Virus record (IMG/VR): IMGVR_UViG_3300043775_000604
Location: 1 to 61,529 of that record
Origin: a virus
Taxonomy: Duplodnaviria; Caudoviricetes
Reading direction: 5' to 3' (one strand)
DNA length: 61,529 nucleotides
The notes beneath the pieces are model-generated. The model was not told the origin of the DNA, did not search any database, and saw only the letters and a list, made by a program, of their open reading frames with translations. Below are positions 2,477 through 49,982 of this stretch, piece after piece. The stretch's first letter is position 1. Every line of letters starts with the position of its first letter. The position numbers and the translations under genes are program-made.

Positions 2477-4039
2477 ATGACGAATGAAATCGTAAAGAAT
2501 CTTAGCTTTGGAGAAGAAGCTAGGAAGAATGTTTTTGCCGGTATAACAAAGTTAACCAAAGCAGTTAGTTCGACATTAGGAGCCGGTGGTAAATGCGTTA
2601 TGCTAGAAGATGGACAAGGTAGACCAATCATTACAAAAGATGGTGTAACTGTTGCTGATAGTATTATTTTATTGGATCCTGTAGAAAACATGGGGGCAAG
2701 ACTATTAAAAGAAGCAGCTAGAAAAACGGTTAAGGAAGCGGGTGATGGCACAACTACTGCTACATTATTAGCTTACTCGATTTTAAAAGAAGCATACGCA
2801 ATACAAAATACAATAAGTCAAAGAGACTTAAAAACAGGTATCGAAGACACTGTTGAAAGAGTTATAGAATATCTTGAATCTATTAAAGTGCCAGTTACAG
2901 GGGATATGATAGATCACATTGCAACTATCTCTACAAACAATGATCCTGTGCTTGGTAAAATTATTGCCGATGCATTTAGAGCTGTTGGGGAAACAGGTAT
3001 TGTTATGATGGAATCATCAGCAAATGCAGAAACAGAAATAGAAATTATTGACGGTGTTCAATATGATAAAGGTTTAGTAAATTCACATTTCATTACTAAC
3101 CCAAATAAAAGAGTTGCAGAATTAGACAATCCATTAGTATTGCTTATTGAATCACCAGTTGAAACAATTAGGCAGATACAATCGATTTTAGAATATGTTA
3201 TAAAAGCAAAAAGATCGTTGCTTATTATTGCAGACATGGAACAAACAGTTCTAGCCGCTCTAGCAATGAACAAAGTAAAAGGTAATATTAAAGTAAATGT
3301 TATAAATGCACCAACATACGGTATCAATAAAAAAGATACATTATCTGATTTAGCATTATTAACAGGAGCCACTATTATAAACGAAGATTTAGGAGATGAT
3401 ATGGATCTTATTGATCCTGAATGTTTAGGTAGTTGTTTAAAAGCAATAACAGACGATACAGAAACTATATTACAAGTAGGGGAAGTTACTGCTGAAGTTC
3501 AAGAGCTTATTGATGACTTGAAACAACAGTTAGAAGGAAACTTACCTCCAGGAGAAGTAATTAGATTAGAGAAGAGACTTGCTAGATTATCTGCTAAAGT
3601 AGCGGTAGTAAAAGTAGGCGCTGGATCTGATATTGAATTAAAAGAAAAAGCTGATAGAGTTGAAGATGCAATTTGTGCAACTAAAGCAGCCATCAAAGAA
3701 GGAATTGTTCCTGGTGGAGGAATTGCATTACTAGATGCCTCTGTAACAATATCGGGATCCAATAGTGGCGAAGGGGCTTTGCTTGATGCAATAAAAGCAC
3801 CATTTAACACGATATTATCTAATGCTGGTATTGACGTACCAAATATGACTTCTGTACGTTTAAAAGGAACCGGAATCAATGCTGTTACAGGAAAGACTGT
3901 GAATATGATTGAAGCGGGTATTATTGATCCTTTGTCGGTTACAAAAAGTGCATTAAGAAACGCAGCATCTGTAGCTATCACTATATTGTCAACTGATTGT
4001 GTAATTAATAATTTAAGAATCAATGAAGGCAATAGGTAA
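2477..4039 (+). CDS. groEL: Phage chaperonin GroEL (Cpn60)
   Basis: ITKDGVTVA, GDGTTTAT, EGIVPGGG, GIIDP motifs; lacks the GGM tail. Confidence 0.97.
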   Translation: MTNEIVKNLSFGEEARKNVFAGITKLTKAVSSTLGAGGKCVMLEDGQGRPIITKDGVTVADSIILLDPVENMGARLLKEAARKTVKEAGDGTTTATLLAYSILKEAYAIQNTISQRDLKTGIEDTVERVIEYLESIKVPVTGDMIDHIATISTNNDPVLGKIIADAFRAVGETGIVMMESSANAETEIEIIDGVQYDKGLVNSHFITNPNKRVAELDNPLVLLIESPVETIRQIQSILEYVIKAKRSLLIIADMEQTVLAALAMNKVKGNIKVNVINAPTYGINKKDTLSDLALLTGATIINEDLGDDMDLIDPECLGSCLKAITDDTETILQVGEVTAEVQELIDDLKQQLEGNLPPGEVIRLEKRLARLSAKVAVVKVGAGSDIELKEKADRVEDAICATKAAIKEGIVPGGGIALLDASVTISGSNSGEGALLDAIKAPFNTILSNAGIDVPNMTSVRLKGTGINAVTGKTVNMIEAGIIDPLSVTKSALRNAASVAITILSTDCVINNLRINEGNR

Positions 4040-8044: not shown

Positions 8045-8647
8045 ATGAGTATGACGGCTGTATTTGATTTTATAATTAAACCGGTAGGCTCTAGATACAA
8101 TAACACTACAGATGTTAATGGTAATCCATTAATATTAAATACTAAGATAGAAAGTTTTAAATCAGTTAATAAAATAGCAGAAGTGGTTTCAGTGCCATTA
8201 GCTATTAAAACAGATATAAAACCTGGTGATATTATAGTAATACACCATAATGTATTTAGACGCTTTTATGATATTAGAGGTAGACAAAAGAATAGTAGAT
8301 CATACTTTAAAGAAGATCTATACTTCTGTTCACCTGACCAAATTTATTTGTATAAAAGAGATAGCGGATGGATTTCCTACGGAGATCGTTGCTTCGTTAA
8401 ACCTATAAAGAATACGAATCAATTTAAGCTAGATAAAGAGCGTAAACATATTGGAATACTAAAATATGGAAACGACTCCTTAAACAAGCTCGGAATCAAT
8501 CCTGGCGACCTAGTTGGATATAAACCTTACGGGGAATTTGAGTTCATCATAGACGATCAGAGATTATATTGTATGAAATCTAATGATATTGTAATTAAAT
8601 ATGGATATAAAGGAGACGAAGAGGAATATAATAGCCGCTGGTCATAA
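8045..8647 (+). CDS. GroES-like protein with two tandem GroES-fold halves
   Basis: FIIKP...AEVVSVP...IKPGDIIVIHH and CFVKP...GILKYG...INPGDLVGY...FIIDDQRLYCMKSNDI. Confidence 0.6.
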   Translation: MSMTAVFDFIIKPVGSRYNNTTDVNGNPLILNTKIESFKSVNKIAEVVSVPLAIKTDIKPGDIIVIHHNVFRRFYDIRGRQKNSRSYFKEDLYFCSPDQIYLYKRDSGWISYGDRCFVKPIKNTNQFKLDKERKHIGILKYGNDSLNKLGINPGDLVGYKPYGEFEFIIDDQRLYCMKSNDIVIKYGYKGDEEEYNSRWS

Positions 8648-19110: not shown

Positions 19111-22100
19111 ATGGCAGAAATTAAAAATAATTTTACTGGAGGAAAAATGAATAAAGATCTCGATGACAGGTTAGTTCCTGAAAACGAGTATCGAAATGCT
19201 GTAAATTTGCAAATAAGTAAATCGGAAAATTCAGATGTAGGTACGATGCAAACCGTACTAGGCAATAGTTTATTGGTTGATTTCAATGAGTTGGCCGATG
19301 AGGAAGACTTAGATTGTATTGGGCAATTTATAGATCTATCTAATAACGTTGGCTACTTTTTCTTAACAGATTATATCGATACTACAGGAACAAATCTATA
19401 TTCTCCAACTGCCAAGAATTATATATATACTTATAATTTTGGAACTAATATTGCGACTAAATTAGTGTCTGGAGCTTTCCTAAACTTTTCAGTAACAAGT
19501 CCTATAATCGGTGTAAATTTATTAGAGAATTTATTATTCTGGACCGACAATAGAAACCAGCCAAGAAAGATAAATGTAGACACGGCTTTTAGTACCCCAA
19601 ATTATTATATAACTGAAGACACTATATCTGTTGCAAAATATTATCCATATAAAGCAATAGAACTTTGGCAAGAAAGCGAAGAAGCTCCTGGAAGTTATGA
19701 AACAACAATGAAAGATGTTTCCTCATTATATTATCCAAATGGAGGTGAATGTTTTACAGCTGAAGCAACTACTGCGGATGCCACTTTCTTAGTTAAAGGT
19801 ATAACAGGTATTATTACGCAAGGTGTAGATGTTGGATATATTGGAAGCGACGGGGGGATTGTTCCACTAGGGTTAACAGTTGATAGTTATGATGACTCCG
19901 GTCCATCAATTACTTTATCGGGACCAATAACTTTACCAGACGAAACATCGTTGGTATTTTCAATTAACCCTTATTATGACCCTGCATTCCCTGGCGATCC
20001 TGATTATTTAAAAGATAAATTTGTAAGATTTTCTTATAGATTTAGGTTTGATGACGGAGAATATTCTTTAATGGCTCCGTTTACTCAAATAGCATTTATA
20101 CCACAACAAGACGGTTACTTTACATATAATTCTGATTTTAATGTTAATGATGAGGAAGCAACATACAGAAGTACTGTTGTTGCTTTTATGCAAAATAAGG
20201 TAACACAAATAAAATTAGTAATACCTCTACCTATCGGTAAAGCGCTGCTTAAAGGAGATTTGAAGATTACTGAGTTAGACATTCTGTATAAAGAGTCCGA
20301 TAGCCTAGCGGTTAAGGTTTTAGATACTATAACAATAGAAGAGATAGAGGATCAAGTTGAAGGAGGAGAGGATTATTTCTTATATAATTACAATTCTAGA
20401 AAACCATATAAAACATTACCCACAACGGAAGTTACTAGAGTATATGATATAGTGCCTGTAAGAGCTCTTGCTCAAGAAGTAGTGAGTAATAGAATTGTTT
20501 ATGGTAATTATCAAGATAAACATACTCCATTGCCTTCTAATGTTAGTTTGAATTACAATGTAGCTGTGTCCACAAAGTACGACTTTGATACTGTTAATGG
20601 TTTTACAAGCTCAATCGAATACCCCAATCATAGTTTAAAAGGAAACAGAAGTTATCAAGTAGGGGTTGTGCTAGCAGATAAATTTGGTAGACAATCAACT
20701 GTATTGTTGTCAAGAAATACAAGTTCTGTAGTTACTGAGGGACAAGCTTTTTCTGGATCTACAGTATATGCAGGATATATAAATAGTACGATTGATCAGA
20801 TGAGTTGGCCTGGAAGTTCTTTAAAACTTATATTTAATGATCTTATACCGCCTGATAGACAAGTATCAACAGCTTATCCGGGTGTATATAATGGTGATCC
20901 AGAAGTGCCTGAATATAATCCGCTAGGTTGGTATTCTTATAAGATAGTTGTAAAACAAACAGAACAAGATTATTACAATGTGTACCTGCCCGGAGTGATG
21001 GCCGCATATCCTGACGATGCTGAAAAAGAAATAGGCAAAACATCCCATGTTGTATTAATAAATGATAACATAAATAAAGTGCCGCGAGATTTATCGGAGG
21101 TTGGTCCATTACAAAAGCAATTCAGGAGCAGTGTTAAGCTGTACAATAGAGTTAACACATTGGACAGACCGTTTGGACCGTATGCGGGGAATATACAGTA
21201 CTACCCAGGCAGAACAGCAATGATAGTTAGTACAATTGCTGATAACTTAGAGATGTTTAATGGCGATGGGTCTATATCAGGTTATACCCCATCTACTCGC
21301 TTTTATAATGTTGAATCCAATCCATTAATAGGCAGAATATCTACAGTAAAACAGTTTGGAATAACAGCAGATAGACCTATAGACAGATGGTTCAATCTTG
21401 GAGTAGCCGAGACAGCGCCGTCTAATTCGTTATTAGATATATTCTGGGAAACAACTACCGCTGGGTCTGTCGTTGAATTAAACGAAGCAATAGAAGATGG
21501 AGCAGGTGGAGCTGTTCGCTTAAGCGAATGGAATACAAATAGTTTTGATGAAGCTATGACTATAGGAGAAGATGTTGTGAAAGGTACATTACCCGGTAGC
21601 GAAGGATTTGTTTTGGTTAATGCTTTTAATGTAGCTATTAATAATAGTCCAATAATAATTACGGGCATGACAATGACCTCCGTATATACTCTTGGACCTT
21701 ACGGAACAGACGTAACCTCGTATTTCGAATTAGTGCCTGATCCATCGAATCCAATAACATCACCTTACCCAAGATGGTTTATAAGGGTCACTGAAGATTT
21801 TTATAACAATGTATATTTCAGGGGTGGTCCTGAATTTGAATTAAATAATTTTGTATTCAACTTTGTAGCTGTAGTTAGTGGATTAGATAGAATATTATCT
21901 AGAACAATTACGTTAAATAATATCGATCCAATAATATCTGATCTGCCAGTGCCTGGTGAAATAATAGCCAGTAATCCTACGGCCGCAGTACACACAAGTT
22001 TGTCTGGTACAAACGGATGCGGTAATATTGCTTTAGCAAATGATCCTCCTCTTGAATGGTCCCTTCTAAGTGCTAAAAATTTAGGCGGTACTCCTGTTGA

Positions 22101-22599
22101 TTATTTTTCAGTATCAACTGAGATAGCTGGAACTTCAGCAAAGGGTTTCTTAAACAACAATTATTTACCTCTTATAACGCCAATAGGCCCTTTTGAAATA
22201 ACTATGAGGTTAACCGATGCTGGCGGAGCTGGTGATGCAGCTGATGCAACCTTTCTACTTAGATTAGGATTTGTACCAGGGCCAGATCGAGTTACAGAGT
22301 ATTCTTTCACTTCTGGTGGTGTTCAAAAGTATTTTGTGGTAATACAAGTGCCTTCTGATAGTGACCCGTATGTTCCTGGATATTATTCATATATAGGTAG
22401 CTGGAATGATTTGAGAAGTGGAACTAGTGTTATTCTTATACCGAGCACTGGATATGCTTGCGCTCCGGGGGGATGGCTATATAGTAGCGATATTGATGTA
22501 ATAAAAGATGACTCAGTATCATGTATTGATAACTCGTATACCGGTTTACTAACAGAACGTTTTCCGGGAACATCAGGATATACATTCTCTTTCTCTTAA
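19111..22599 (+). CDS. Tail stabilisation (muzzle/nozzle-like) protein, N-terminal part with appended beta-rich domains
   Basis: FTGGKMNKDLDDRLVP..YRNAVN start, LFWTDNRNQPRKIN, RFSYRFRFDDGEYS, YQVGVVLADKFGR. Confidence 0.75.
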   Translation: MAEIKNNFTGGKMNKDLDDRLVPENEYRNAVNLQISKSENSDVGTMQTVLGNSLLVDFNELADEEDLDCIGQFIDLSNNVGYFFLTDYIDTTGTNLYSPTAKNYIYTYNFGTNIATKLVSGAFLNFSVTSPIIGVNLLENLLFWTDNRNQPRKINVDTAFSTPNYYITEDTISVAKYYPYKAIELWQESEEAPGSYETTMKDVSSLYYPNGGECFTAEATTADATFLVKGITGIITQGVDVGYIGSDGGIVPLGLTVDSYDDSGPSITLSGPITLPDETSLVFSINPYYDPAFPGDPDYLKDKFVRFSYRFRFDDGEYSLMAPFTQIAFIPQQDGYFTYNSDFNVNDEEATYRSTVVAFMQNKVTQIKLVIPLPIGKALLKGDLKITELDILYKESDSLAVKVLDTITIEEIEDQVEGGEDYFLYNYNSRKPYKTLPTTEVTRVYDIVPVRALAQEVVSNRIVYGNYQDKHTPLPSNVSLNYNVAVSTKYDFDTVNGFTSSIEYPNHSLKGNRSYQVGVVLADKFGRQSTVLLSRNTSSVVTEGQAFSGSTVYAGYINSTIDQMSWPGSSLKLIFNDLIPPDRQVSTAYPGVYNGDPEVPEYNPLGWYSYKIVVKQTEQDYYNVYLPGVMAAYPDDAEKEIGKTSHVVLINDNINKVPRDLSEVGPLQKQFRSSVKLYNRVNTLDRPFGPYAGNIQYYPGRTAMIVSTIADNLEMFNGDGSISGYTPSTRFYNVESNPLIGRISTVKQFGITADRPIDRWFNLGVAETAPSNSLLDIFWETTTAGSVVELNEAIEDGAGGAVRLSEWNTNSFDEAMTIGEDVVKGTLPGSEGFVLVNAFNVAINNSPIIITGMTMTSVYTLGPYGTDVTSYFELVPDPSNPITSPYPRWFIRVTEDFYNNVYFRGGPEFELNNFVFNFVAVVSGLDRILSRTITLNNIDPIISDLPVPGEIIASNPTAAVHTSLSGTNGCGNIALANDPPLEWSLLSAKNLGGTPVDYFSVSTEIAGTSAKGFLNNNYLPLITPIGPFEITMRLTDAGGAGDAADATFLLRLGFVPGPDRVTEYSFTSGGVQKYFVVIQVPSDSDPYVPGYYSYIGSWNDLRSGTSVILIPSTGYACAPGGWLYSSDIDVIKDDSVSCIDNSYTGLLTERFPGTSGYTFSFS

Positions 22600-26910: not shown

Positions 26911-29900
26911 ATGTTTGAATACATCGATGCCTCTGGGCAAATATATACAGAAGATCAAATCAACAAAATGGCAGCCGAGCAAAAAACCTCGGCTAATGCC
27001 ATTATAAAAGACAAAGGATTAAAAAGAAAATCTTCAATGGTTTCAGCTTCTGCAAAGCCAGCTAAAAAAACATATCCTTGGAGTGATCAAACAAAAGAAA
27101 AAAAATCAGAAGGCGATTTTCTTGGCACATTCAAAAAAGCTCAGAAGAATAAAAAAGCAAATATAAAGAAGAGCACTGAGGAAGTATCAGCATTTGTAGG
27201 TAAACAAAATGATTATTCGTTTTACCAAAAAGATCCTATACAAGACATTTTAAATCCAACTAGCGAATTTGAAAAAGCTATTGCAAATATTCCAATTAAA
27301 AAGGAATTTGAGATACTAGAAGAGAAGGAAGCAGAAGTAATGAATTATATAAAGAGCAAGCCTATTGACTATGCCTCTATTGATAAATTATATGCAGATG
27401 AGGTTAACGATTCTCAAACAATAGATTACATTAGAGAAGGTGCAAAAGGGTTCCTTAATGATGTTATATTAAGCCCAGTATCTATGGTAGGGCAAGTTTT
27501 AGGCGCTGATATAGATATGACTATATCTCCATACAAGCCATTAGAGACACAAAAAAAGAAAGCTATAGATATATTATCAAAGAAAGCTAAAAAAGGCCAG
27601 AAAATAAACGCTGCAGATGTTGATGCGTTAGCTAAGGAGATATTTTATAAAGAGCAAGTATTAATACAAGAGGGCAAAGCTGCGGAAGAATATTGGGATG
27701 ATCAACCTTTATACATCGGAGAAGTAGCTGCACAGAAAGAAAAATTAAAAATAAGAGCAGTACAAGATGTATTGGTATCTTCTGATTTAGCTAGACAACA
27801 AACTATATTAGCTAAAACATATAACAGCCAATTATCTTCATTTGAAAAGTATGCAAATCTTTTTAAAGACAAATATACTAAAGGGGAAGTTACAGAAGAA
27901 GAAATAGCTACTTACGAAACAAGAAGAGAAGATGCTAGAAAGGCTATGGATAACCTTAAAGGTATTGCAGATAATTATCCTGCTTATGTTGATAAAATAA
28001 AAACAGACGAAGAGAAATTAGAGTATTTCAAATATAATTATGATGATGTAACCGCTAATCTATCCAAGTTTATTGGTACTGGTATAAATATATTAGGTGG
28101 AGCTACAAAGTTAATTGGATCTACAATTGAATATGCTGAAGGAGACGAAAAAGGATTAGGTGGATTTTTAGGAGAAGTTGGTACTGCTAATATAGAAATG
28201 GGTAATAAAATAAAAGAAGATGCTAAGAATATATCATTTGATAATGTTAATTCTTTTGGTGACTTTGGTAAATATTTTGCTGGACTAGTTTCAGAACAAT
28301 TACCTATTTATGCAGCAATGTATTTTGGTGGGAATTATGGATTGGCCGCTGTATCAATGGGAGCTGGTGGGCAGAAGATCCAAGAAATGGAAGATGAGAT
28401 TGGTTCTGATTATGATCTTGGTACAAAGCTTTTAGCTGGGTATGGGTTTGCTCTTTCAGAGTTTATACCTGAAAAATTAGGTACACTAAGGATGTTTGAG
28501 AACATGAAGAAAACAATGTCCGCGGTCAGCAAACAGCAAAGACAGCTATTCAAAGATAGCTTTATAAAGTCTAGTCTAAAAACAGCTGGTACTATTGGTT
28601 TTGAAAGTCAAATAGAAGGAGCAACTGAAGTTGTTACCGAAGGATTAAACATGCTTTTAGACGAGCATTTATTAGGCCAGCCAGTTTCTCCAACAGATAG
28701 AGTCAAAAGATTTAAAGAGGCTTATGCTGGAGGCGCATTTATGGGAGGAGGAGCTCAATTTGCAGGTGGTGTATCAACTTTAGTGGCTAAAGAATTAAAG
28801 AACTACGCCACAGATAAAGAGTTAGCTGCTAGTAAAGCAATAATGGAACGTATTGACTTTTTGCAAAATGAATTACAAACTAACCCTAGATTATCTGGAA
28901 AAGAAAGTGAAGAAATAATAACTGAAATAAAAAAGCTCAGTAATGAAGCTGTTAAAGTTATTGAAAATTCAGAAGACAGAGTGTATGACATGTCAAAGGA
29001 AGACATGGTTGATGTTCTACTTATAAACAAACAACAACAAGATCTTAGAGACGCTTACGTTGAATTATCTCAGTCAAACTTTTCGCCAGAGATTAAGAAA
29101 GAAAAAGTAGCAGAATTAAAAAAGCAATTTGGCGAGCTAGAGAATAAAAGAGAATACTTATTAACCGGTAAGTATGCTGAAATAAATAAAATAATAGGTA
29201 ACAGAACTATTATTAATAGCGGAGCCGATAATATAAGAAAAATTGTAGCTTCATTAGGTGAAGAAAATATTGAGAATAGAATAGGTGGTCAAGGATCAAT
29301 CGCTGTATTTGAAGATATCGACTCACTTAAAAAAGCTTACAAAGAATGGTTAACAACCGAAAATAATACTATTAAAAAGAAGATTGCTGATGGCGAACTT
29401 CCTGCTAATACAAAAATAAAATCAGAAGATGAAATAACTAATGATGTAAATGAAGCTGCAAAAAACGATGGATTTGCATTGCCAAATGGTCAATCTGTTA
29501 TTAATCTTAGTGTAGCTTCAAGAACTGGAGCTATTAACGTTGCGCAGCATGAGTTTTTGCATAAAGTATTAGCTAAAGCCCTCAGTAACCCAGTAGAAAG
29601 AAAAAAAATTGTTAATGGGTTTTTAGCTACATTGACGAATAAAGAAAGAGCTGCTGTTCAAAAACGTATTGATGAAAACTATTTAAACCCTGAAACAGGT
29701 AAGATAGACGACGAGAACCTTGAAGAATATTTTACAGCGTTTATTGATGCTATTGCTTACGGAGAAATAGGTAATAGAAATCAAGTTAAAGATGTATTAA
29801 GAAGAGCTGCTCGTCCAGTATTAAAAGTATTACAGAAATTAGGATTCTCTAACGCTAAATTTAGCGAAGGAAGAGATTTCTATGACTTCTTAAAAGAATA

Positions 29901-32900
29901 TCAATCTAACGCTAGTAAGGGCAGAATAAGTAACAGAGCTAAAGCTTTATTAGATGGAGCATCTGTAGCTAGACCTATTAGATACTCAAAGTCAATTGAA
30001 GAACGCATGGACGATTTGGATGAGCAACTTAATGATGGCGAAATTGACTACGACACTTACGAGAAGAAAATGGTTGCTCTGGAAAAAGAGGAAGCTGAAA
30101 TGAAACGTAAAGAATACGAAGAAAAGAAAGCAGAAACGGGTAAGGAGCCAGAAGTTAAGAAAGCAGACAAAAAAGCTACAAAGCAAAAAGAGCCGAAATC
30201 AAAAGAGGAAATAGAGATAAGTGAAGTTGCCGCTAAAGCTAAAGCTAAGCTTGATGCTATTGGTAATGATCCAAGAGGTTACAATCCAAATAATCCAACC
30301 ATATATGATGAGTTAGCTAAAATGGTTAAAGTAAAATCGCGAAACTGGAGAACAAACAAAGGAACTGTTATAGATTTTACAAATAAAGATAAGGGCGGAT
30401 TAGACGGTTTTAGTTTAGAGGAAATGGTGAGTTATGTTAGAACATCGATGATACCATATATTGCTAAATTTGATCCCTCTAAAAATAATAGTTTATACGG
30501 ATATATAAATGCTCAGTATATAAACCGTATGCGCGGCGCATTAAAAAGCGGGGAAGTTGCTGATGTGGTATTTACTGAGGATGTTACTGAAATGACAAAA
30601 CTATCTGCGGAGGATGTTGAGCCAACAAAACCATCTTTACCGGAAAGAAAACGTTTTCAAAATATATTAGAATCTGGTGTATTCAGCCCTGATGTTATTG
30701 AAAATATACAAGCAAAAATATTACCAGTTGTAAGAACTTTAAGAGCTAATATCAACGAGAAAACATCTTTGAATAGAACTGTAGCTCCAATTATTAGTGA
30801 GATACGTGATGAGATGGGTAAGCAAGCTGACATTGATATTAAAAAAGCAATGGGTGGAAAAGAAAATCAAGAATTACAGAATTGGTTAATCACTAATAAA
30901 AAGACTATTCTTGAGAACATGACAACAACATGGCTTATGGGTAAAGACATGGGCGATAAAGTTGCTGGTGGTATGCCGTTTGCCATACAAAAAAGAGTAG
31001 ATGGCCGATGGCTTAATTACCCTGCTTGGGTTGGTAAAAAGATAGATAGAGAATCTGTAGACGTTGACTTAGCTGGTAGAACAGCTGGTCACGAGATGGC
31101 AAGAAGATTACCTGAGGTGAATAGAAATGTTGAAACAATGGAATATTTATCTTCAATTATAGATTTAGAAACGGGTAATCCAATTAGAGGTAGGAAAGAA
31201 TCTTTAGCTAAAGCATTAGCAGAGGAGGTATCATTTGATATTATATCTGATGACTTATCTTCTAACGGCCCTATTGCACAAGCATTAAATAGAAACCAAC
31301 AATTAAAAGGAGCTGTAGTTGAAGACATAATAGTTGAAGAGTTTAATAGATTAGCAGAAAGAGGAAATGTTAAATTTTCTATATCTAATACAAACATCGA
31401 CTTAAATGCAGCTGCTAGATTTATGATAGACTCTAAAGGCAATATGGATGTCATAAATGCAGCAATAAACAATAAGTCTAAAAATTACAATATAAATGAA
31501 TTCCAAAAACTATACAAGTATATAACTAAGTATGGTGTAACAGATGAGGACTTAAAGTATCTAATGGATAAATACAGTGATGTATCTAACGAAGTTGCTG
31601 GTCCTCTTATGAATGACAAAGAAGTTAAATTCTCTAAATCATTGGAGAATAATTTGAATTCATATAATAAATCCGATAAGGGTATTACATTAGTCTCTGA
31701 TTATATTGCTGAAAACAATATTAAGAGAATAGATGCGGAAACCGCTTTCGATGTCTTAAACGATCTTAATAAGTCAATTGAAGATTGGTGGAGTGTCGTT
31801 GAAAATAAAACAATAGAAGGCATGATGAGTTCTGTTGATTATGCGTTTGATGTAATCGAAGATCGTGAGAACGAAGGCGGACCTATGATGGCCGCTGTAA
31901 ACAATGCTCTTAATTTAGAGACAATTAAGTTTGCTGAGAAGCAATTAAACGATTGGATTAGTAACGACACTAAGTGGAAAGCAAGACCTAAATTTAGTAA
32001 GTCATTATCCACTCTTTCACAATTTAATGATATAAGTAAATCTGAAAAAGAATTTATTGATATTTCTGAGAAGTTTGTTAAAGATGTGATGAATAAAAGC
32101 GGGTTGAATAGAAAAGCTATACAGCTTGAGACATTAACTATAAAAGAGGATAATGAGCTATATAATTTTGATCAGGAATATCAAGAGCTATATGATAAAG
32201 ATTATGACGGCACAATAACAGAAGCTGAGAGGGCAAGGATGGAGGAAATATATAAAAGTAATGTATTAGCTAAACAGGTTAATAAGATACTTGAAATATA
32301 TACTAAAGCAAAGATTAACAGCAATAATAATGATATAGTAAATGCTGTTGAAAGTTCAATGCCTAAAAAAGCTTTAACTACTACAAAATTTAGTAGATCA
32401 GGAGGGCCTCTTTCTTCTGTTGAAGAAACCTCTAAAGCTGTAACAGGAGTCATTGACAATATAGACCTGCGTAGCTTTCCTTTTGAAGATCAATCTGCAG
32501 TACAAGCTTTTATCGATGTAGTTAATAACATAAATAAACTAGGTTATAACGTAAGTGATATAAAAACATTTAAAGACTATTTTGACTTTGTAAACCAGAA
32601 CGAGGTAATTAAAGAATATCTAGAAGCTGTAGGCGAAATCGAAGGATTAAATGATATATACAATACTCATGTAGAGAACGTATCAATATATGAAATGGAA
32701 CCGGTTGTATATGGAATAGATACAGATGCTTCAAGAAATAATACCTACATATTAGCCTCTGATGTAATAGACCCTAATTCAGGTGAAATTATTGCTAAAG
32801 CAGGAAGTAAAATAAATGAGGGTATCATTGAAGAAATAAACACTAAAGGTAAAGGATCTATAAAAGAAGTTGAAGTATTTATAGGTAAAATGGCTATGGA

Positions 32901-35448
32901 TAGTAAAATTCCTAACAAGGATTTATTAAAACTAAAAGACAGCATTGCAGATCTTTCTTTAGCGTCAAAAAGAAAAGTAGCTGAAGCAATTTCAGAGAAG
33001 TATCATAAAGCAAAGAGTAAAGGAGATACGGAAGTTGAAAACGCTAGAACATTGACAAAAAAAGAAAGGACAGAGGCTATAGCTAAACTTACGGACTCTC
33101 AGAAAGAGGACTTATTCGTAATAGATGTAGTAGAGAATGTTGTTCCTAAAGATAATGGATCTAGACCTGGTAAATCTTTAGATTATGAATTTAATGACAT
33201 GCTTGAACGTAATAAAGGTGTACCATCATACGAAAAAATATCTGATATTGTTGCGAAAAGGAAAGGGGCAAAAGTAAATAGATTTTCTTTCTATATTCCT
33301 CCTTCAGCTGATGATTTTATTGGACTGACTTCATATATGTTTGCAGGCAAAGGCAAGCAGGGAGAATTAGACCAACAGTTTTTTACGCGTTACTTAATTA
33401 TACCTTATGTAAAAGGAATAAATACACTAGATACAGTAAGACAATCTATAAAGAAATCATACAAAGAACTATTATCAAGTTTTCCTGAAATAAAATCTAA
33501 GTTAGAGAAACTTATTCCTGATAAGTCATTTACATACGATCAAGCTATTAGGGTTTATTTATGGGCAAAGAATGATATAGATATACCGGGTTTAGATAGA
33601 AAAGATAAAAATAAGCTAGTATACATAGTAAAAAATGATCCAGACTTAATTGCATTTGCTGAAGCTTTATCTATTGCTGGTAGGCAAGACGGCGGTTGGT
33701 GGAAACCGTCTACTACATGGGATAGTGAAACTATTATATCGGATCTACACAACATTACAGAAGGCGATGGTAGAAAAATGTGGCTAGAGGAGTTTATAGA
33801 AAACGCTAACACAATATTTTCTAAAGAAAACCTAAACAAAATTCAATCTATATATGGTACCAGTGTAAGAGAGGCTTTGGAAGACGCATTATATAGAATG
33901 AAAAACGGGAAAAATAGACCTGAAGGCACGGATGCGTTAACCAACAGATGGATGAATTGGATAAACGGATCCACTGCTGCGATCATGTTTTTCAATTTAC
34001 GTTCCGCTATTTTACAAACGATATCTACTACAAACTATTTGAATTGGAGTGATAACAATCCTTTAATGGCAGCAAAAGCGTTTGCAAATCAAAAACAATA
34101 TTGGGCGGATTTCGCTATGATTATTAATTCTGATAAATTAAAAGAAAGAAGATCTGGATTGAAAGCTGATGTTACGCAATCTGAAATTGCAAATGCGGCT
34201 AATAATGCAAAAGATAAAGCAAGAGGTGTTCTATCTTATCTACAGAAAATAGGGTTTACGCCTACACAAGCAGCTGATAGTTTTGCGATTGCATTAGGAG
34301 GATCTACTTTCTATAGAAATAGAGTTAATACCTATTTGAATAAAGCAGACGAAGACGGGAACTTGATATATACAGAAAAAGAAGCAGAAGATTTAGCTTG
34401 GCTTGATTTTTCAAGAGCAACTGACCAGTCAATGCAATCTGCTGATCCATTGTATGTTTCAAAACAACAAACAACTTCATTAGGGCGCCTTGTACTAGCT
34501 TTTGCTAATACTCCTATGCAATATAATAGATTAATTAAAAAAGCTTCATTAGACTTAGTTAATAGGCGTGGCGATTGGAAAACAAATATATCAAAAATAG
34601 TATATTATGGAGCCTTACAAAATATTATATTTTCAGCATTACAAGCAGCTTTATTCTTACCATTTGATGACGAGGAAGAAGATATTGCCAATATGACTAA
34701 AGAGCAGAAAAAAGAATATGAAAAGTTAAAAAAGAAAGAAGACGATAAAGCTATTAATATTTTAAATGGGATGGCTGATACATTGTTAAGAGGATCTGGT
34801 ATTACAGGTGCATTAATATCTACTATTAAAAATGTTTACATGGAATATAATAAGCAAGAACAAAGGGAGATGTTTGCGGACCATGCTTATACTATATTAG
34901 CTGCTGCGGGTATATCTCCACCTATAAGTTCCAAGGCTAGAAAATTATACGGAGCGCATCGTACAAAAAAATTCGATAAAGATGTAATAGCTGAACGCGG
35001 ATGGGAAATAACAAAAGACGGTAAGCTTAATCTTAGTCCTAATTATCAAATAGTCGGTAATATAGCTGTAGCAACTACAAATATTCCTCTAGATAGGGTT
35101 GTTGAAAAAGTAAATAATGTATCTGAAGCATTAGATTCTCGTAATACAAAACTACAAAGAACAGCATTAATGCTTGGATGGAAAGCGTGGGAATTGAATG
35201 TTAAAAACGAAGAAAGCGAAGCAATCAAAGCAAAAGCTAAAGAAGTAAGAAATAAAGAAGGGGTAGAAAAAGCTATAGAAACTAGAGAAAGAAAGACAGA
35301 TTCAATAAAGCAAATGATAAAAGAAATGCCTAGTGCTGAAAGAAGTGCTTACCTTAGAAAGCAAAAGCTAGAAAGAAGAGAGAAGACTATTGAAAAAAGA
35401 AAGAAAGCTATAGCTAAAAAGAATAAAAGAAGAATGGGCGGTGATTAA
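26911..35448 (+). CDS. Giant (2845 aa) internal virion polyvalent protein with zincin protease, sigma-region-2-like and RpoB/RpoC-insert-like modules
   Basis: Last gene of the ejection cluster; HEFLH at aa 880 plus downstream EE; repeated [KR][FY]S[KRI]S; see findings. Confidence 0.75.
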   Translation: MFEYIDASGQIYTEDQINKMAAEQKTSANAIIKDKGLKRKSSMVSASAKPAKKTYPWSDQTKEKKSEGDFLGTFKKAQKNKKANIKKSTEEVSAFVGKQNDYSFYQKDPIQDILNPTSEFEKAIANIPIKKEFEILEEKEAEVMNYIKSKPIDYASIDKLYADEVNDSQTIDYIREGAKGFLNDVILSPVSMVGQVLGADIDMTISPYKPLETQKKKAIDILSKKAKKGQKINAADVDALAKEIFYKEQVLIQEGKAAEEYWDDQPLYIGEVAAQKEKLKIRAVQDVLVSSDLARQQTILAKTYNSQLSSFEKYANLFKDKYTKGEVTEEEIATYETRREDARKAMDNLKGIADNYPAYVDKIKTDEEKLEYFKYNYDDVTANLSKFIGTGINILGGATKLIGSTIEYAEGDEKGLGGFLGEVGTANIEMGNKIKEDAKNISFDNVNSFGDFGKYFAGLVSEQLPIYAAMYFGGNYGLAAVSMGAGGQKIQEMEDEIGSDYDLGTKLLAGYGFALSEFIPEKLGTLRMFENMKKTMSAVSKQQRQLFKDSFIKSSLKTAGTIGFESQIEGATEVVTEGLNMLLDEHLLGQPVSPTDRVKRFKEAYAGGAFMGGGAQFAGGVSTLVAKELKNYATDKELAASKAIMERIDFLQNELQTNPRLSGKESEEIITEIKKLSNEAVKVIENSEDRVYDMSKEDMVDVLLINKQQQDLRDAYVELSQSNFSPEIKKEKVAELKKQFGELENKREYLLTGKYAEINKIIGNRTIINSGADNIRKIVASLGEENIENRIGGQGSIAVFEDIDSLKKAYKEWLTTENNTIKKKIADGELPANTKIKSEDEITNDVNEAAKNDGFALPNGQSVINLSVASRTGAINVAQHEFLHKVLAKALSNPVERKKIVNGFLATLTNKERAAVQKRIDENYLNPETGKIDDENLEEYFTAFIDAIAYGEIGNRNQVKDVLRRAARPVLKVLQKLGFSNAKFSEGRDFYDFLKEYQSNASKGRISNRAKALLDGASVARPIRYSKSIEERMDDLDEQLNDGEIDYDTYEKKMVALEKEEAEMKRKEYEEKKAETGKEPEVKKADKKATKQKEPKSKEEIEISEVAAKAKAKLDAIGNDPRGYNPNNPTIYDELAKMVKVKSRNWRTNKGTVIDFTNKDKGGLDGFSLEEMVSYVRTSMIPYIAKFDPSKNNSLYGYINAQYINRMRGALKSGEVADVVFTEDVTEMTKLSAEDVEPTKPSLPERKRFQNILESGVFSPDVIENIQAKILPVVRTLRANINEKTSLNRTVAPIISEIRDEMGKQADIDIKKAMGGKENQELQNWLITNKKTILENMTTTWLMGKDMGDKVAGGMPFAIQKRVDGRWLNYPAWVGKKIDRESVDVDLAGRTAGHEMARRLPEVNRNVETMEYLSSIIDLETGNPIRGRKESLAKALAEEVSFDIISDDLSSNGPIAQALNRNQQLKGAVVEDIIVEEFNRLAERGNVKFSISNTNIDLNAAARFMIDSKGNMDVINAAINNKSKNYNINEFQKLYKYITKYGVTDEDLKYLMDKYSDVSNEVAGPLMNDKEVKFSKSLENNLNSYNKSDKGITLVSDYIAENNIKRIDAETAFDVLNDLNKSIEDWWSVVENKTIEGMMSSVDYAFDVIEDRENEGGPMMAAVNNALNLETIKFAEKQLNDWISNDTKWKARPKFSKSLSTLSQFNDISKSEKEFIDISEKFVKDVMNKSGLNRKAIQLETLTIKEDNELYNFDQEYQELYDKDYDGTITEAERARMEEIYKSNVLAKQVNKILEIYTKAKINSNNNDIVNAVESSMPKKALTTTKFSRSGGPLSSVEETSKAVTGVIDNIDLRSFPFEDQSAVQAFIDVVNNINKLGYNVSDIKTFKDYFDFVNQNEVIKEYLEAVGEIEGLNDIYNTHVENVSIYEMEPVVYGIDTDASRNNTYILASDVIDPNSGEIIAKAGSKINEGIIEEINTKGKGSIKEVEVFIGKMAMDSKIPNKDLLKLKDSIADLSLASKRKVAEAISEKYHKAKSKGDTEVENARTLTKKERTEAIAKLTDSQKEDLFVIDVVENVVPKDNGSRPGKSLDYEFNDMLERNKGVPSYEKISDIVAKRKGAKVNRFSFYIPPSADDFIGLTSYMFAGKGKQGELDQQFFTRYLIIPYVKGINTLDTVRQSIKKSYKELLSSFPEIKSKLEKLIPDKSFTYDQAIRVYLWAKNDIDIPGLDRKDKNKLVYIVKNDPDLIAFAEALSIAGRQDGGWWKPSTTWDSETIISDLHNITEGDGRKMWLEEFIENANTIFSKENLNKIQSIYGTSVREALEDALYRMKNGKNRPEGTDALTNRWMNWINGSTAAIMFFNLRSAILQTISTTNYLNWSDNNPLMAAKAFANQKQYWADFAMIINSDKLKERRSGLKADVTQSEIANAANNAKDKARGVLSYLQKIGFTPTQAADSFAIALGGSTFYRNRVNTYLNKADEDGNLIYTEKEAEDLAWLDFSRATDQSMQSADPLYVSKQQTTSLGRLVLAFANTPMQYNRLIKKASLDLVNRRGDWKTNISKIVYYGALQNIIFSALQAALFLPFDDEEEDIANMTKEQKKEYEKLKKKEDDKAINILNGMADTLLRGSGITGALISTIKNVYMEYNKQEQREMFADHAYTILAAAGISPPISSKARKLYGAHRTKKFDKDVIAERGWEITKDGKLNLSPNYQIVGNIAVATTNIPLDRVVEKVNNVSEALDSRNTKLQRTALMLGWKAWELNVKNEESEAIKAKAKEVRNKEGVEKAIETRERKTDSIKQMIKEMPSAERSAYLRKQKLERREKTIEKRKKAIAKKNKRRMGGD

Positions 35449-44596: not shown

Positions 44597-45364
44597 TTAT
44601 AGGTAATCAAGGACTTGCGAGGAATCAACGTTCGCAACTAGTTTAGCTATCGCTTGCTTTTTTATCTCAGAAATTCTAACATAAGCACTTGCTCCTTCAA
44701 TACCTAAATAGTCTGCTATTGCATTTGCTGGATGCTTATCGCAGTCTAAACCGTAACTTAATCTCAATACATCGTTTTCTGTTTGTGTTAAATGTTTACT
44801 TAATAAATCTACTAAGTATTTATTCATTAAGTTTATATTGTAAGGCTCAGCTCTATCAGGGATCTGATACAACATATTGTCATCATCATCATCATCACTC
44901 ATTTGTTCATCGATGCTAAGGAATATTGAATTGAAGAACATTGATACCATTGCATGATCCTGACCATTATCCTTCCTAATTTCATTTAGTTTATGTTCTG
45001 GGATCTTAATAGCGCCTCTATTGATATCTATAGCTCTTCTAATCGAGCCTTTTATTCTTTTTGATAGAAACGACTTGATTGTTTTTTCTTGATCAACAGA
45101 CGAGCTTATTGTCTTCCATTCTATTTTATCAACAGCTAATATTAAACCAATTGATCCGTATTGAATAAGGTCTGTAATATCTAGTACACCGCAAGCTTGG
45201 GTTGTAGTTGAAAACTTTTTAGCTATGTTTTCTACTAATGGTAGAAACTTACTTATAAGTTGATCTCTAGAATAAGATTCAAAGTTAACTTCGTTGTTGT
45301 TTTTATTAACACGAGCTATATCTTCTTTGTATCTAATGTAATTTGGTATGTTGTAGCTTTTCAT
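44597..45364 (-). CDS. Phage RNA polymerase sigma-70 family factor
   Basis: Region 2 LPLVENIAKKF...DLIQYGSIGLILAVDK...KRIKGSIRRAI, IKIP, region 4 LTQTENDVLRLSYGL...IADYLG...RISEIKKQAIAKL. Confidence 0.9.
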   Translation of the reverse strand: MKSYNIPNYIRYKEDIARVNKNNNEVNFESYSRDQLISKFLPLVENIAKKFSTTTQACGVLDITDLIQYGSIGLILAVDKIEWKTISSSVDQEKTIKSFLSKRIKGSIRRAIDINRGAIKIPEHKLNEIRKDNGQDHAMVSMFFNSIFLSIDEQMSDDDDDDNMLYQIPDRAEPYNINLMNKYLVDLLSKHLTQTENDVLRLSYGLDCDKHPANAIADYLGIEGASAYVRISEIKKQAIAKLVANVDSSQVLDYL

Positions 45365-49892: not shown

Positions 49893-49909
49893 AGTTTTAA
49901 TTTGTTTAG

Positions 49910-49982
49910 TAGTCAGGACAGGATTCGAACCTGCATCTTCCCGTTGCCTGAACGGGCTCGTTACCATTTACGCCACCTGACT
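49910..49982 (-). tRNA. tRNA-like gene with atypical anticodon loop (TCAGGCA, nominal AGG)
   Basis: Perfect acceptor stem AGTCAGG/CCTGACT, T-arm GCAGG-TTCGAAT-CCTGT, anticodon stem CCCGT/ACGGG; C instead of U at 33. Confidence 0.7.

Follow-up and report, generated by a model that had tools for sequence, protein, structure and literature searches.

A BBM2-like RNA polymerase repeat module in an exchangeable cassette of a giant phage protein

Introduction

The complete genome of a tailed phage of the class Caudoviricetes (IMG/VR record IMGVR_UViG_3300043775_000604; 61,529 bases with direct terminal repeats, referred to at its full length as the window) contains at 26911–35448 (+) a giant open reading frame (ORF) of 2845 amino acids (aa), with which the virion-gene block closes in the ORF list. 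A first-pass annotation of this DNA, made from the letters alone, had quoted 44 residues of the giant protein as closely following a repeat-module pattern of the beta and beta' subunits of bacterial RNA polymerase (RNAP). The locus raises the questions of whether this likeness is more than accidental, what kind of protein segment carries it, and what such a unit may do in a protein encoded among virion genes. Translation of 32749–32880 (+) yields exactly the residues quoted, which are aa 1947–1990 of the giant protein.

The repeat concerned is beta-beta' module 2 (BBM2), a unit of ~45 residues that makes up surface inserts in the beta and beta' subunits of bacterial RNAP, such as beta-i4 (SI1) and beta-i5 (PMC2939025; bioRxiv 10.1101/2022.01.17.476619). 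The beta-i4 insert of Escherichia coli (residues 225–343) is a tandem of two BBM2 motifs, and for beta-i4 inserts in general one to six repeats are predicted (PMC2939025). We describe here the relation of the phage stretch to BBM2 and its position in a cassette that is dispensable and specific to this strain, within a hypervariable slot, a setting that the first-pass annotation had missed.

Results

Likeness of the stretch to BBM2

A hidden Markov model (HMM) of beta-i4 was built from E. coli rpoB and 80 gammaproteobacterial rpoB loci (81 sequences), taking the region aligned to E. coli residues 225–343 and using no phage input, and was run, with every filter disabled, against the window translated in six frames and divided into 467 pieces. 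It matched the giant ORF only, with a full-sequence E-value of 3.1e-5, the next best piece reaching 0.37. The best domain (independent E-value 2.6e-4, 16.0 bits) places model positions 72–110, corresponding to the second BBM2 motif (BBM2b), on aa 1947–1985, and the match spans the whole BBM2b unit, including the helix, beyond the turn alone. When the model was applied to a 62-aa segment around the stretch, the score was 24.6 bits, a value reached by none of 5000 shuffles (maximum 14.3, mean −0.4), and the reversed segment obtained 0.8 bits. The repeat pattern recognised by the profile comprises a hairpin with an acidic-x-x-T/S-G-E turn, an amphipathic helix and a terminal strand, in agreement with the beta-hairpin, helix and terminal strand predicted for aa 1947–1990.

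As positive controls, the same model gave 14.8 bits to the BBM2 of a distant RpoB (P0122) and 14–22 bits to the gammaproteobacterial beta' modules listed, so that the phage score lies within the range of true units. The beta' modules matched are located at residues ~830–913 of the RpoC ORFs of loci L021, L025, L035, L036, L055, L070 and L073; these profile matches illustrate the shared beta/beta' nature of BBM2. Only a single copy is present in the giant protein, no second domain rising above noise with this model, which is within the one to six copies predicted for beta-i4 inserts (PMC2939025). None of the 119 other giant proteins compared contains a BBM2 by the same model, the best E-value among them being 0.42.

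Single-sequence searches also led to RNAP. In a phmmer search of PDB, the 62-aa query gave six matches at E ≤ 10, four of which are RNAP beta or beta' chains: 7l7b_C 316–349 (E 0.011) and 8syi_Z 250–288 (E 0.013), the two best, together with 6j9e_C 302–331 and 7ye1_C 304–342. Dihydrolipoamide dehydrogenase (E 0.28) and a T-cell receptor chain (E 2.1) are the non-RNAP proteins among the weak matches. A 167-aa query returned the same two leaders, 7l7b_C and 8syi_Z, and the RNAP matches fall in regions called BBM2 inserts in the literature (PMC2939025; bioRxiv 10.1101/2022.01.17.476619). Aligned by hhalign with an RpoB lobe alignment, the cassette that carries the stretch (cassette 4, described below) gave a probability of 85.6% over 40 columns. 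A word-index search of 5.8 billion proteins (39 candidates) produced as its only match one RpoB at 27 bits, in which 18 of 41 residues (44%) are identical, and the identity of the stretch to individual gammaproteobacterial rows is 13–28%. ESM-Atlas feature searches, taken as leads only, returned for a 70-aa query top clusters at 0.97, one of them having PF04561 in 19% of its members.

These comparisons confirm that the likeness of the stretch to the RNAP repeat module exceeds chance. The description of the stretch as closely following RpoB/RpoC is correct as to kind, the HMM, the shuffles and hhalign all marking it as BBM2-like, but is overstated as to degree, with identities of 13–28% and at best 44%. 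Likewise, a similarity to RpoB/RpoC is borne out by four of the six PDB phmmer matches and by hhalign, whereas nothing significant emerged from the billion-protein libraries. At the level of sequence, the signal is real and well controlled, yet it is that of a singleton of ~40 residues.

Predicted fold of the module

The structure of the module was predicted with AlphaFold2 (AF2) guided by a multiple sequence alignment (MSA) of 50 RpoB beta-i4 rows. In the resulting model, aa 1945–1974 form a hairpin and a helix with predicted local distance difference test (pLDDT) scores of 74–79. A Foldseek search of PDB with this model returned RNAP beta or beta' chains in all of the top 50 rows (best E 0.021), including 3lti, 7l7b_C and the Porphyromonas gingivalis chain 8dkc_D; the root-mean-square deviation was 1.2–2.6 Å over 35–47 columns in 47 of these rows and exceeded 5 Å in the other three. 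The MSA-guided model is compatible with the BBM2 fold.

A dispensable cassette in a hypervariable slot

Of 8000 candidates scored, 2716 are homologues of the giant protein at E ≤ 0.001. The homologue comparisons given here use the 120 that were listed, which are 2031–3196 aa long, many of them on contigs of ~60–65 kb. BLAST coverage is 114–120 of 120 over aa ~850–1450 and ~2100–2800, whereas at aa 1901–2000 the query alone is left (1 of 120); within the slot the count drops from 119 to this single sequence. From this coverage and from comparison with sister proteins, a hypervariable slot is delimited at aa 1491–2087 (31381–33171, +), which starts after an invariant G-N-x-K-F-S (aa 1485–1490), ends at S-K-S-L-D-x-E-F and measures 206–861 aa in 118 homologues. 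It consists here of four cassettes, aa 1491–1575, 1576–1696, 1697–1828 and 1829–2087, and the BBM2-like module lies in the last of them (cassette 4; 32395–33171, +; 259 aa) between helical flanks of unassigned fold.

Cassette boundaries are marked by a short motif, [KR][FY]S[KRI]S, which occurs five times in the giant protein against 0.036 expected, a number reached by none of 2000 shuffles. The first copy, RYSKS at aa 1024 (29980–29994, +), precedes the slot; the last four, namely KFSIS at aa 1488–1492 (31372–31386, +), whose K1488 and S1490 do not vary across the family, KFSKS at aa 1573 (31627–31641, +), KFSKS at aa 1694 (31990–32004, +) and KFSRS at aa 1826 (32386–32400, +), bound cassettes. 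Cassettes have been gained or lost in sister proteins exactly after KFS. In P0005, P0006 and P0007 (94–96% identity), which are without cassettes 3 and 4, KFSKS at aa ~1697 is joined straight to LDYEF; in P0004 (96% identity), cassette 3 is present and cassette 4 absent, KFSKS again being joined directly to LDYEF. In P0003, 99% identical over aa 1–1698 and also without cassette 4, cassettes 2 and 3 are separated by an extra cassette of ~300 aa that begins immediately behind KFS. DNA repeats flanking cassette 4 amount only to short chance-like pairs; the junction signal is at the protein level. The KFS motif may mark sites of proteolytic cleavage, of recombination, or of both.

At its start, the extra cassette of P0003 (aa 1702–1998) matches ART-PolyVal (PF18760; E 4.9e-5, 24.6 bits, below the cut-off of 31.2) and, likewise below threshold, DUF3990. 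Situated two junctions upstream of the position of cassette 4, it is a probable virion-borne ADP-ribosyltransferase, as judged from this family match.

Cassette 4 itself is absent from the other 119 of the 120 listed homologues in the BLAST comparison, and a search with the cassette 4 region among 2303 candidates found only P0002, which is the query itself. By homologue comparison, cassette 4 is shown to be unique to this phage and dispensable. Its composition (GC 0.329, and 0.20 at third codon positions, GC3) equals that of the gene (0.333 and 0.22). The first-pass annotation had spoken of a captured module; as a recent event, capture of the cassette from a host found no support, no donor having been found (no match among the representatives, one RpoB at 27 bits) and the composition being that of the rest of the gene. 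The RpoB loci collected for comparison are gammaproteobacterial.

The possibility that cassette 4 as a whole is a captured beta lobe was likewise rejected at the sequence level. Neither the lobe HMM nor hhalign aligned any part of it outside the ~40-residue BBM2 portion, and the Pfam Rpb2 domain (Rpb2_2) was found neither in the cassette nor in the giant protein. In ESM-Atlas, all 30 matches of the whole cassette are clusters of the RpoB lobe (PF04561) at 0.96, with a recognition value of 1744, below the mark of 2300; this lobe signal is probably driven by the module. A low-confidence model of the cassette gave only helical-bundle noise in Foldseek.

Absence of a polymerase core

The first-pass annotation had noted that no RNAP catalytic domain is visible around the stretch. 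There is no Rpb2 domain or other Pfam RNAP domain in the giant protein and no conserved DxDxD, its sole DxDx[DE] (aa 1762) falling in a family column composed mostly of gaps, and no match to the rpoB family exists in the complete 61.5-kb virus record; this remark was therefore right. In the virion RNAP of crassviruses, the catalytic core is a double-psi beta-barrel bearing an Asp triad. The giant protein was rejected as a candidate virion RNA polymerase, lacking a DxDxD triad and matching nothing in PDB, Pfam or PHROGs.

The stretch had further been taken as a second transcription-related fragment beside a sigma-like one, a view that finds no support: no Pfam sigma family matches the giant protein at E ≤ 1, and the sigma-like gene is a separate ORF at 44597–45364 (−), outside the giant protein. 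This ORF matches PHROG 351 (E 2.2e-21) and Sigma70_r2 (E 1.1e-4, 22.3 bits, just below the cut-off of 24). Through it, the phage probably redirects the host core RNA polymerase; as a sigma-like protein is encoded and rpoB is not, the phage depends on the host core polymerase.

The giant protein family

In its conserved N-terminal part, the giant protein contains HEFLH at aa 880–884 (29548–29562, +), the HExxH half of a zincin-type signature, and E939 (29725–29727, +), the downstream Glu of the HExxH...E signature; an alignment of 51 giant proteins shows no variation at H880, E881, H884 and E939. No Pfam peptidase family matches the HExxH region. Searches of Pfam, PHROGs and PDB with the whole giant protein yielded nothing beyond Tricorn_C1 in Pfam (E 0.18), a profile of the family gave only coiled-coil noise against PDB, and no nucleotide match of the giant gene was found in the phage collection.

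Over aa 150–759, the protein is 28.6% identical to a 3694-aa protein of Flavobacterium Elemovirus phages, deposited under the label 'structural protein', and Tenacibaculum phages match too. The Elemovirus protein (gp20 of vB_FspP_elemo, NC_062743) is likewise encoded by a giant gene that closes a series of virion genes, in a podophage genome of ~60 kb; the match covers 21% of the query, and neither the slot nor the module is matched. The phage is distantly related to Flavobacterium/Tenacibaculum podophages.

Discussion

Comparison with known systems

The phage stretch is best compared with the BBM2 repeats of RNAP itself, such as those of E. coli beta-i4/SI1 (PDB 3LTI) and Clostridioides difficile beta-i5 (PDB 7L7B), with which it shares the same pattern of hairpin, helix and last strand in ~40–45 residues. 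It differs from them in lying outside any RNAP subunit, in being present in one copy and not two, in having flanks unlike the beta lobe and in an identity of 13–44%; moreover, its carrier is a giant protein of a virion block.

For the carrier, the closest parallels are the polyvalent proteins of phages, plasmids and conjugative elements. These are giant polypeptides with many domains, whose genes lie among those for virion proteins; they contain HExxH + Glu metallopeptidases and are believed to accompany the DNA into the host and, in some cases, to process themselves (Iyer et al. 2017, PMC5512222). Like these (e.g., N4 gp50), the phage protein described here is giant and composed of several parts, its gene is situated among virion genes, and it combines an invariant HExxH + Glu with variable fused modules, including the probable ART-PolyVal in the sister P0003. 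A difference is that none of the 33 giant proteins scanned is matched above cut-off by a polyvalent family of Pfam. The terms 'BBM' and 'decoy' do not occur in the main text of PMC5512222, its supplements being left aside.

A further parallel is offered by the crassvirus PhicrAss001, whose giant cargo proteins (gp45–gp50), specified by genes downstream of those for the tail, reside in the virion and are presumed to leave it by ejection (PMC10172136). The very large genes in both cases follow tail genes, an N-domain of crAss-type muzzle being encoded here upstream, at 19111–22599. In contrast to the crassvirus giants, the present family has no match to a solved structure and no conserved DxDxD, and the genome measures 61.5 kb and not ~100 kb.

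Favoured reading

Taken together, we regard as moderately probable a composite reading in which the stretch is a BBM2-type unit homologous to the RNAP modules and long resident in phages, serving as a docking domain in an exchangeable, virion-borne cassette whose KFS borders are processing or recombination junctions. Of its parts, it is most likely that the stretch shares ancestry with the RNAP modules and has long resided in phage DNA. By analogy to the systems above, the giant protein would be a virion cargo of the polyvalent kind, entering the host together with the DNA, an assignment drawn from context and not from demonstrated membership; for packaging in the virion, the sole indirect support is the label under which the Elemovirus homologue was deposited. 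The slot would carry exchangeable accessory, host-directed modules; the sister P0003, 99% identical over aa 1–1698, has a probable ADP-ribosyltransferase there. The BBM2 unit would provide a small protein-docking surface for the target of the cassette, in the way that BBM2 inserts serve as docking surfaces, for instance for TraR (PMC6970531), and the KFS junctions would act as processing sites, as recombination joints, or as both.

Several observations speak against this reading. On the side of the module, the best PDB E-values are only about 0.01, the best single RpoB stands at E 1.9 library-wide, aa 1831–2083 have no match at E ≤ 0.001 in 1.84 billion representatives, and only ~40 residues match at all, the flanks matching nothing. 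Without an alignment, AF2 gave aa 1831–2083 a mean pLDDT of 50, with 23–40 for the module; the MSA-guided model has a mean pLDDT of 59 with its last strand unconfident, and none of its Foldseek rows is at E ≤ 0.001. Since the guiding alignment was drawn from RpoB, the Foldseek matches to RNAP are partly circular and indicate compatibility, not independent proof. On the side of the carrier, only two recorded contigs carry this exact giant protein, and the polyvalent or cargo reading rests on context: none of the 33 giant proteins scanned has a Pfam hit above a curated cut-off, PHROGs gave none, a peptidase link of the family to N4 gp50 (aa 2130–2448) was rejected at an hhalign probability of 0.16%, and transmembrane segments were rejected for the C-terminal part, where none reaches a Kyte–Doolittle mean of 1.4 over 19 residues.

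Alternative explanations

Among the alternatives, the one that survives best is that cassette 4 is a functionless passenger, a neutral filler or spacer in which the BBM2-like unit is merely a small, stable fold that binds nothing in particular; it is compatible with homology, and we consider it possible, though rather less than probable. The existence of close sisters without cassette 4, the restriction of the cassette to two contigs, the lack of a recognisable family in its flanks and the variation of the slot from 206 to 861 aa would all be expected of such a filler. However, a stretch of 259 codons has been kept open, in frame and in the composition of its own gene, and the cassette of a sister in the same slot carries a probable enzyme. 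The only content recognisable in the slot consists of the BBM2-like unit and, in P0003, of ART-PolyVal only below threshold.

We consider it unlikely that the likeness is convergent or due to chance, that is, a generic hairpin-helix-strand motif with a D-x-x-(S/T)-G-E turn that shares no ancestry with the RNAP modules. The match is admittedly short (~40 aa), the library-wide E-values are non-significant, non-RNAP proteins occur among the weak PDB matches and the single-sequence fold is unconfident. Against these points stand the 2.6e-4 of a profile built independently of the phage, over a clean background (the next piece of the window stands at 0.37, the best of the 119 other giants at 0.42), the failure of all 5000 shuffles to reach the real score, the coverage of the whole BBM2b unit with its helix, and the agreement of the ESM features with RNAP.

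A role as an RNAP-directed mimic or adaptor, in which the single BBM2 unit, once ejected, either titrates out a host factor normally docking on a BBM2 insert of RNAP or pairs with such an insert and thereby tethers the helical flanks to the polymerase, is the least probable of these explanations and in our view a long shot. It draws on the RNAP-like nature of the module, on the tandem packing of BBM2 units in beta-i4 (PMC2939025), on the role of beta-Si1 as a docking site of TraR, which contacts the beta lobe–Si1 with 77% of its interface on Si1 (PMC6970531), on the dependence on the host core polymerase of a phage with a sigma-like protein and no rpoB, and on the probable ADP-ribosyltransferase in the slot of the sister, such virion-borne enzymes modifying RNAP in T4 (PMC5512222). 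Opposed to it are the lack of a close donor, the dispensability of the cassette and the position of the sole Bacteroidota RNAP in PDB (8dkc), which is outside the six sequence matches and appears at Foldseek rank 36 with 30% identity. That the target would be RNA polymerase or one of its ligands is an attractive idea, but an improbable one. Equally doubtful is its fullest form, in which a virion-delivered copy of BBM2 would mimic the host transcription machine, acting as a decoy for a regulator or a defence sensor that reads BBM2 inserts or pairing with a host BBM2 insert to park an effector there, and in which the KFS-bounded slot would be a plug-in bay whose modules are released by the protein's own HExxH peptidase.

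Significance

In the literature searched, which lies outside the paper defining BBM2 and the supplements, BBM2 appears only as a part of RNAP inserts. The function of BBM2 inserts is largely obscure apart from the docking of regulators such as TraR (PMC6970531). Within that same literature, a free-standing BBM2 in a phage cassette would be the first outside a polymerase, and such a copy could serve as bait for proteins that bind BBM2 inserts. The carrier may outweigh the module: a family of >2700 giant proteins, with a hypervariable slot and cassettes bounded by KFS(K/R)S, offers a natural system for swapping virion-borne modules, and this cassette-slot architecture may be a more useful lead than the module itself.

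Genome setting and neighbouring genes

The plus-strand block that ends with the giant ORF contains GroEL- and GroES-like genes, those for the large terminase (TerL) and the portal, several virion-protein genes, and muzzle-like and fibre-like genes. The GroEL-like gene lies at 2477–4039 (+) (PHROG 5725, E 8.7e-130) and the GroES-like gene at 8045–8647 (+) (PHROG 13932, E 1.3e-23). The ORF at 19111–22599 (+), of 1162 aa and upstream of the giant ORF, matches with its N-terminal 160 aa the Crassvirus muzzle family PF25731 (E 2.6e-12; 46.1 bits, above the cut-off of 27), a family match that hints at a crAss-like tail element in a phage of 61.5 kb. The minus-strand block after the giant ORF encodes ribonucleotide reductase, thymidylate synthase, MazG, a primase-helicase, Erf, an exonuclease and the sigma-like protein. 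The sole tRNA of the genome is a tRNA-Pro with anticodon AGG at 49909–49982 (−).

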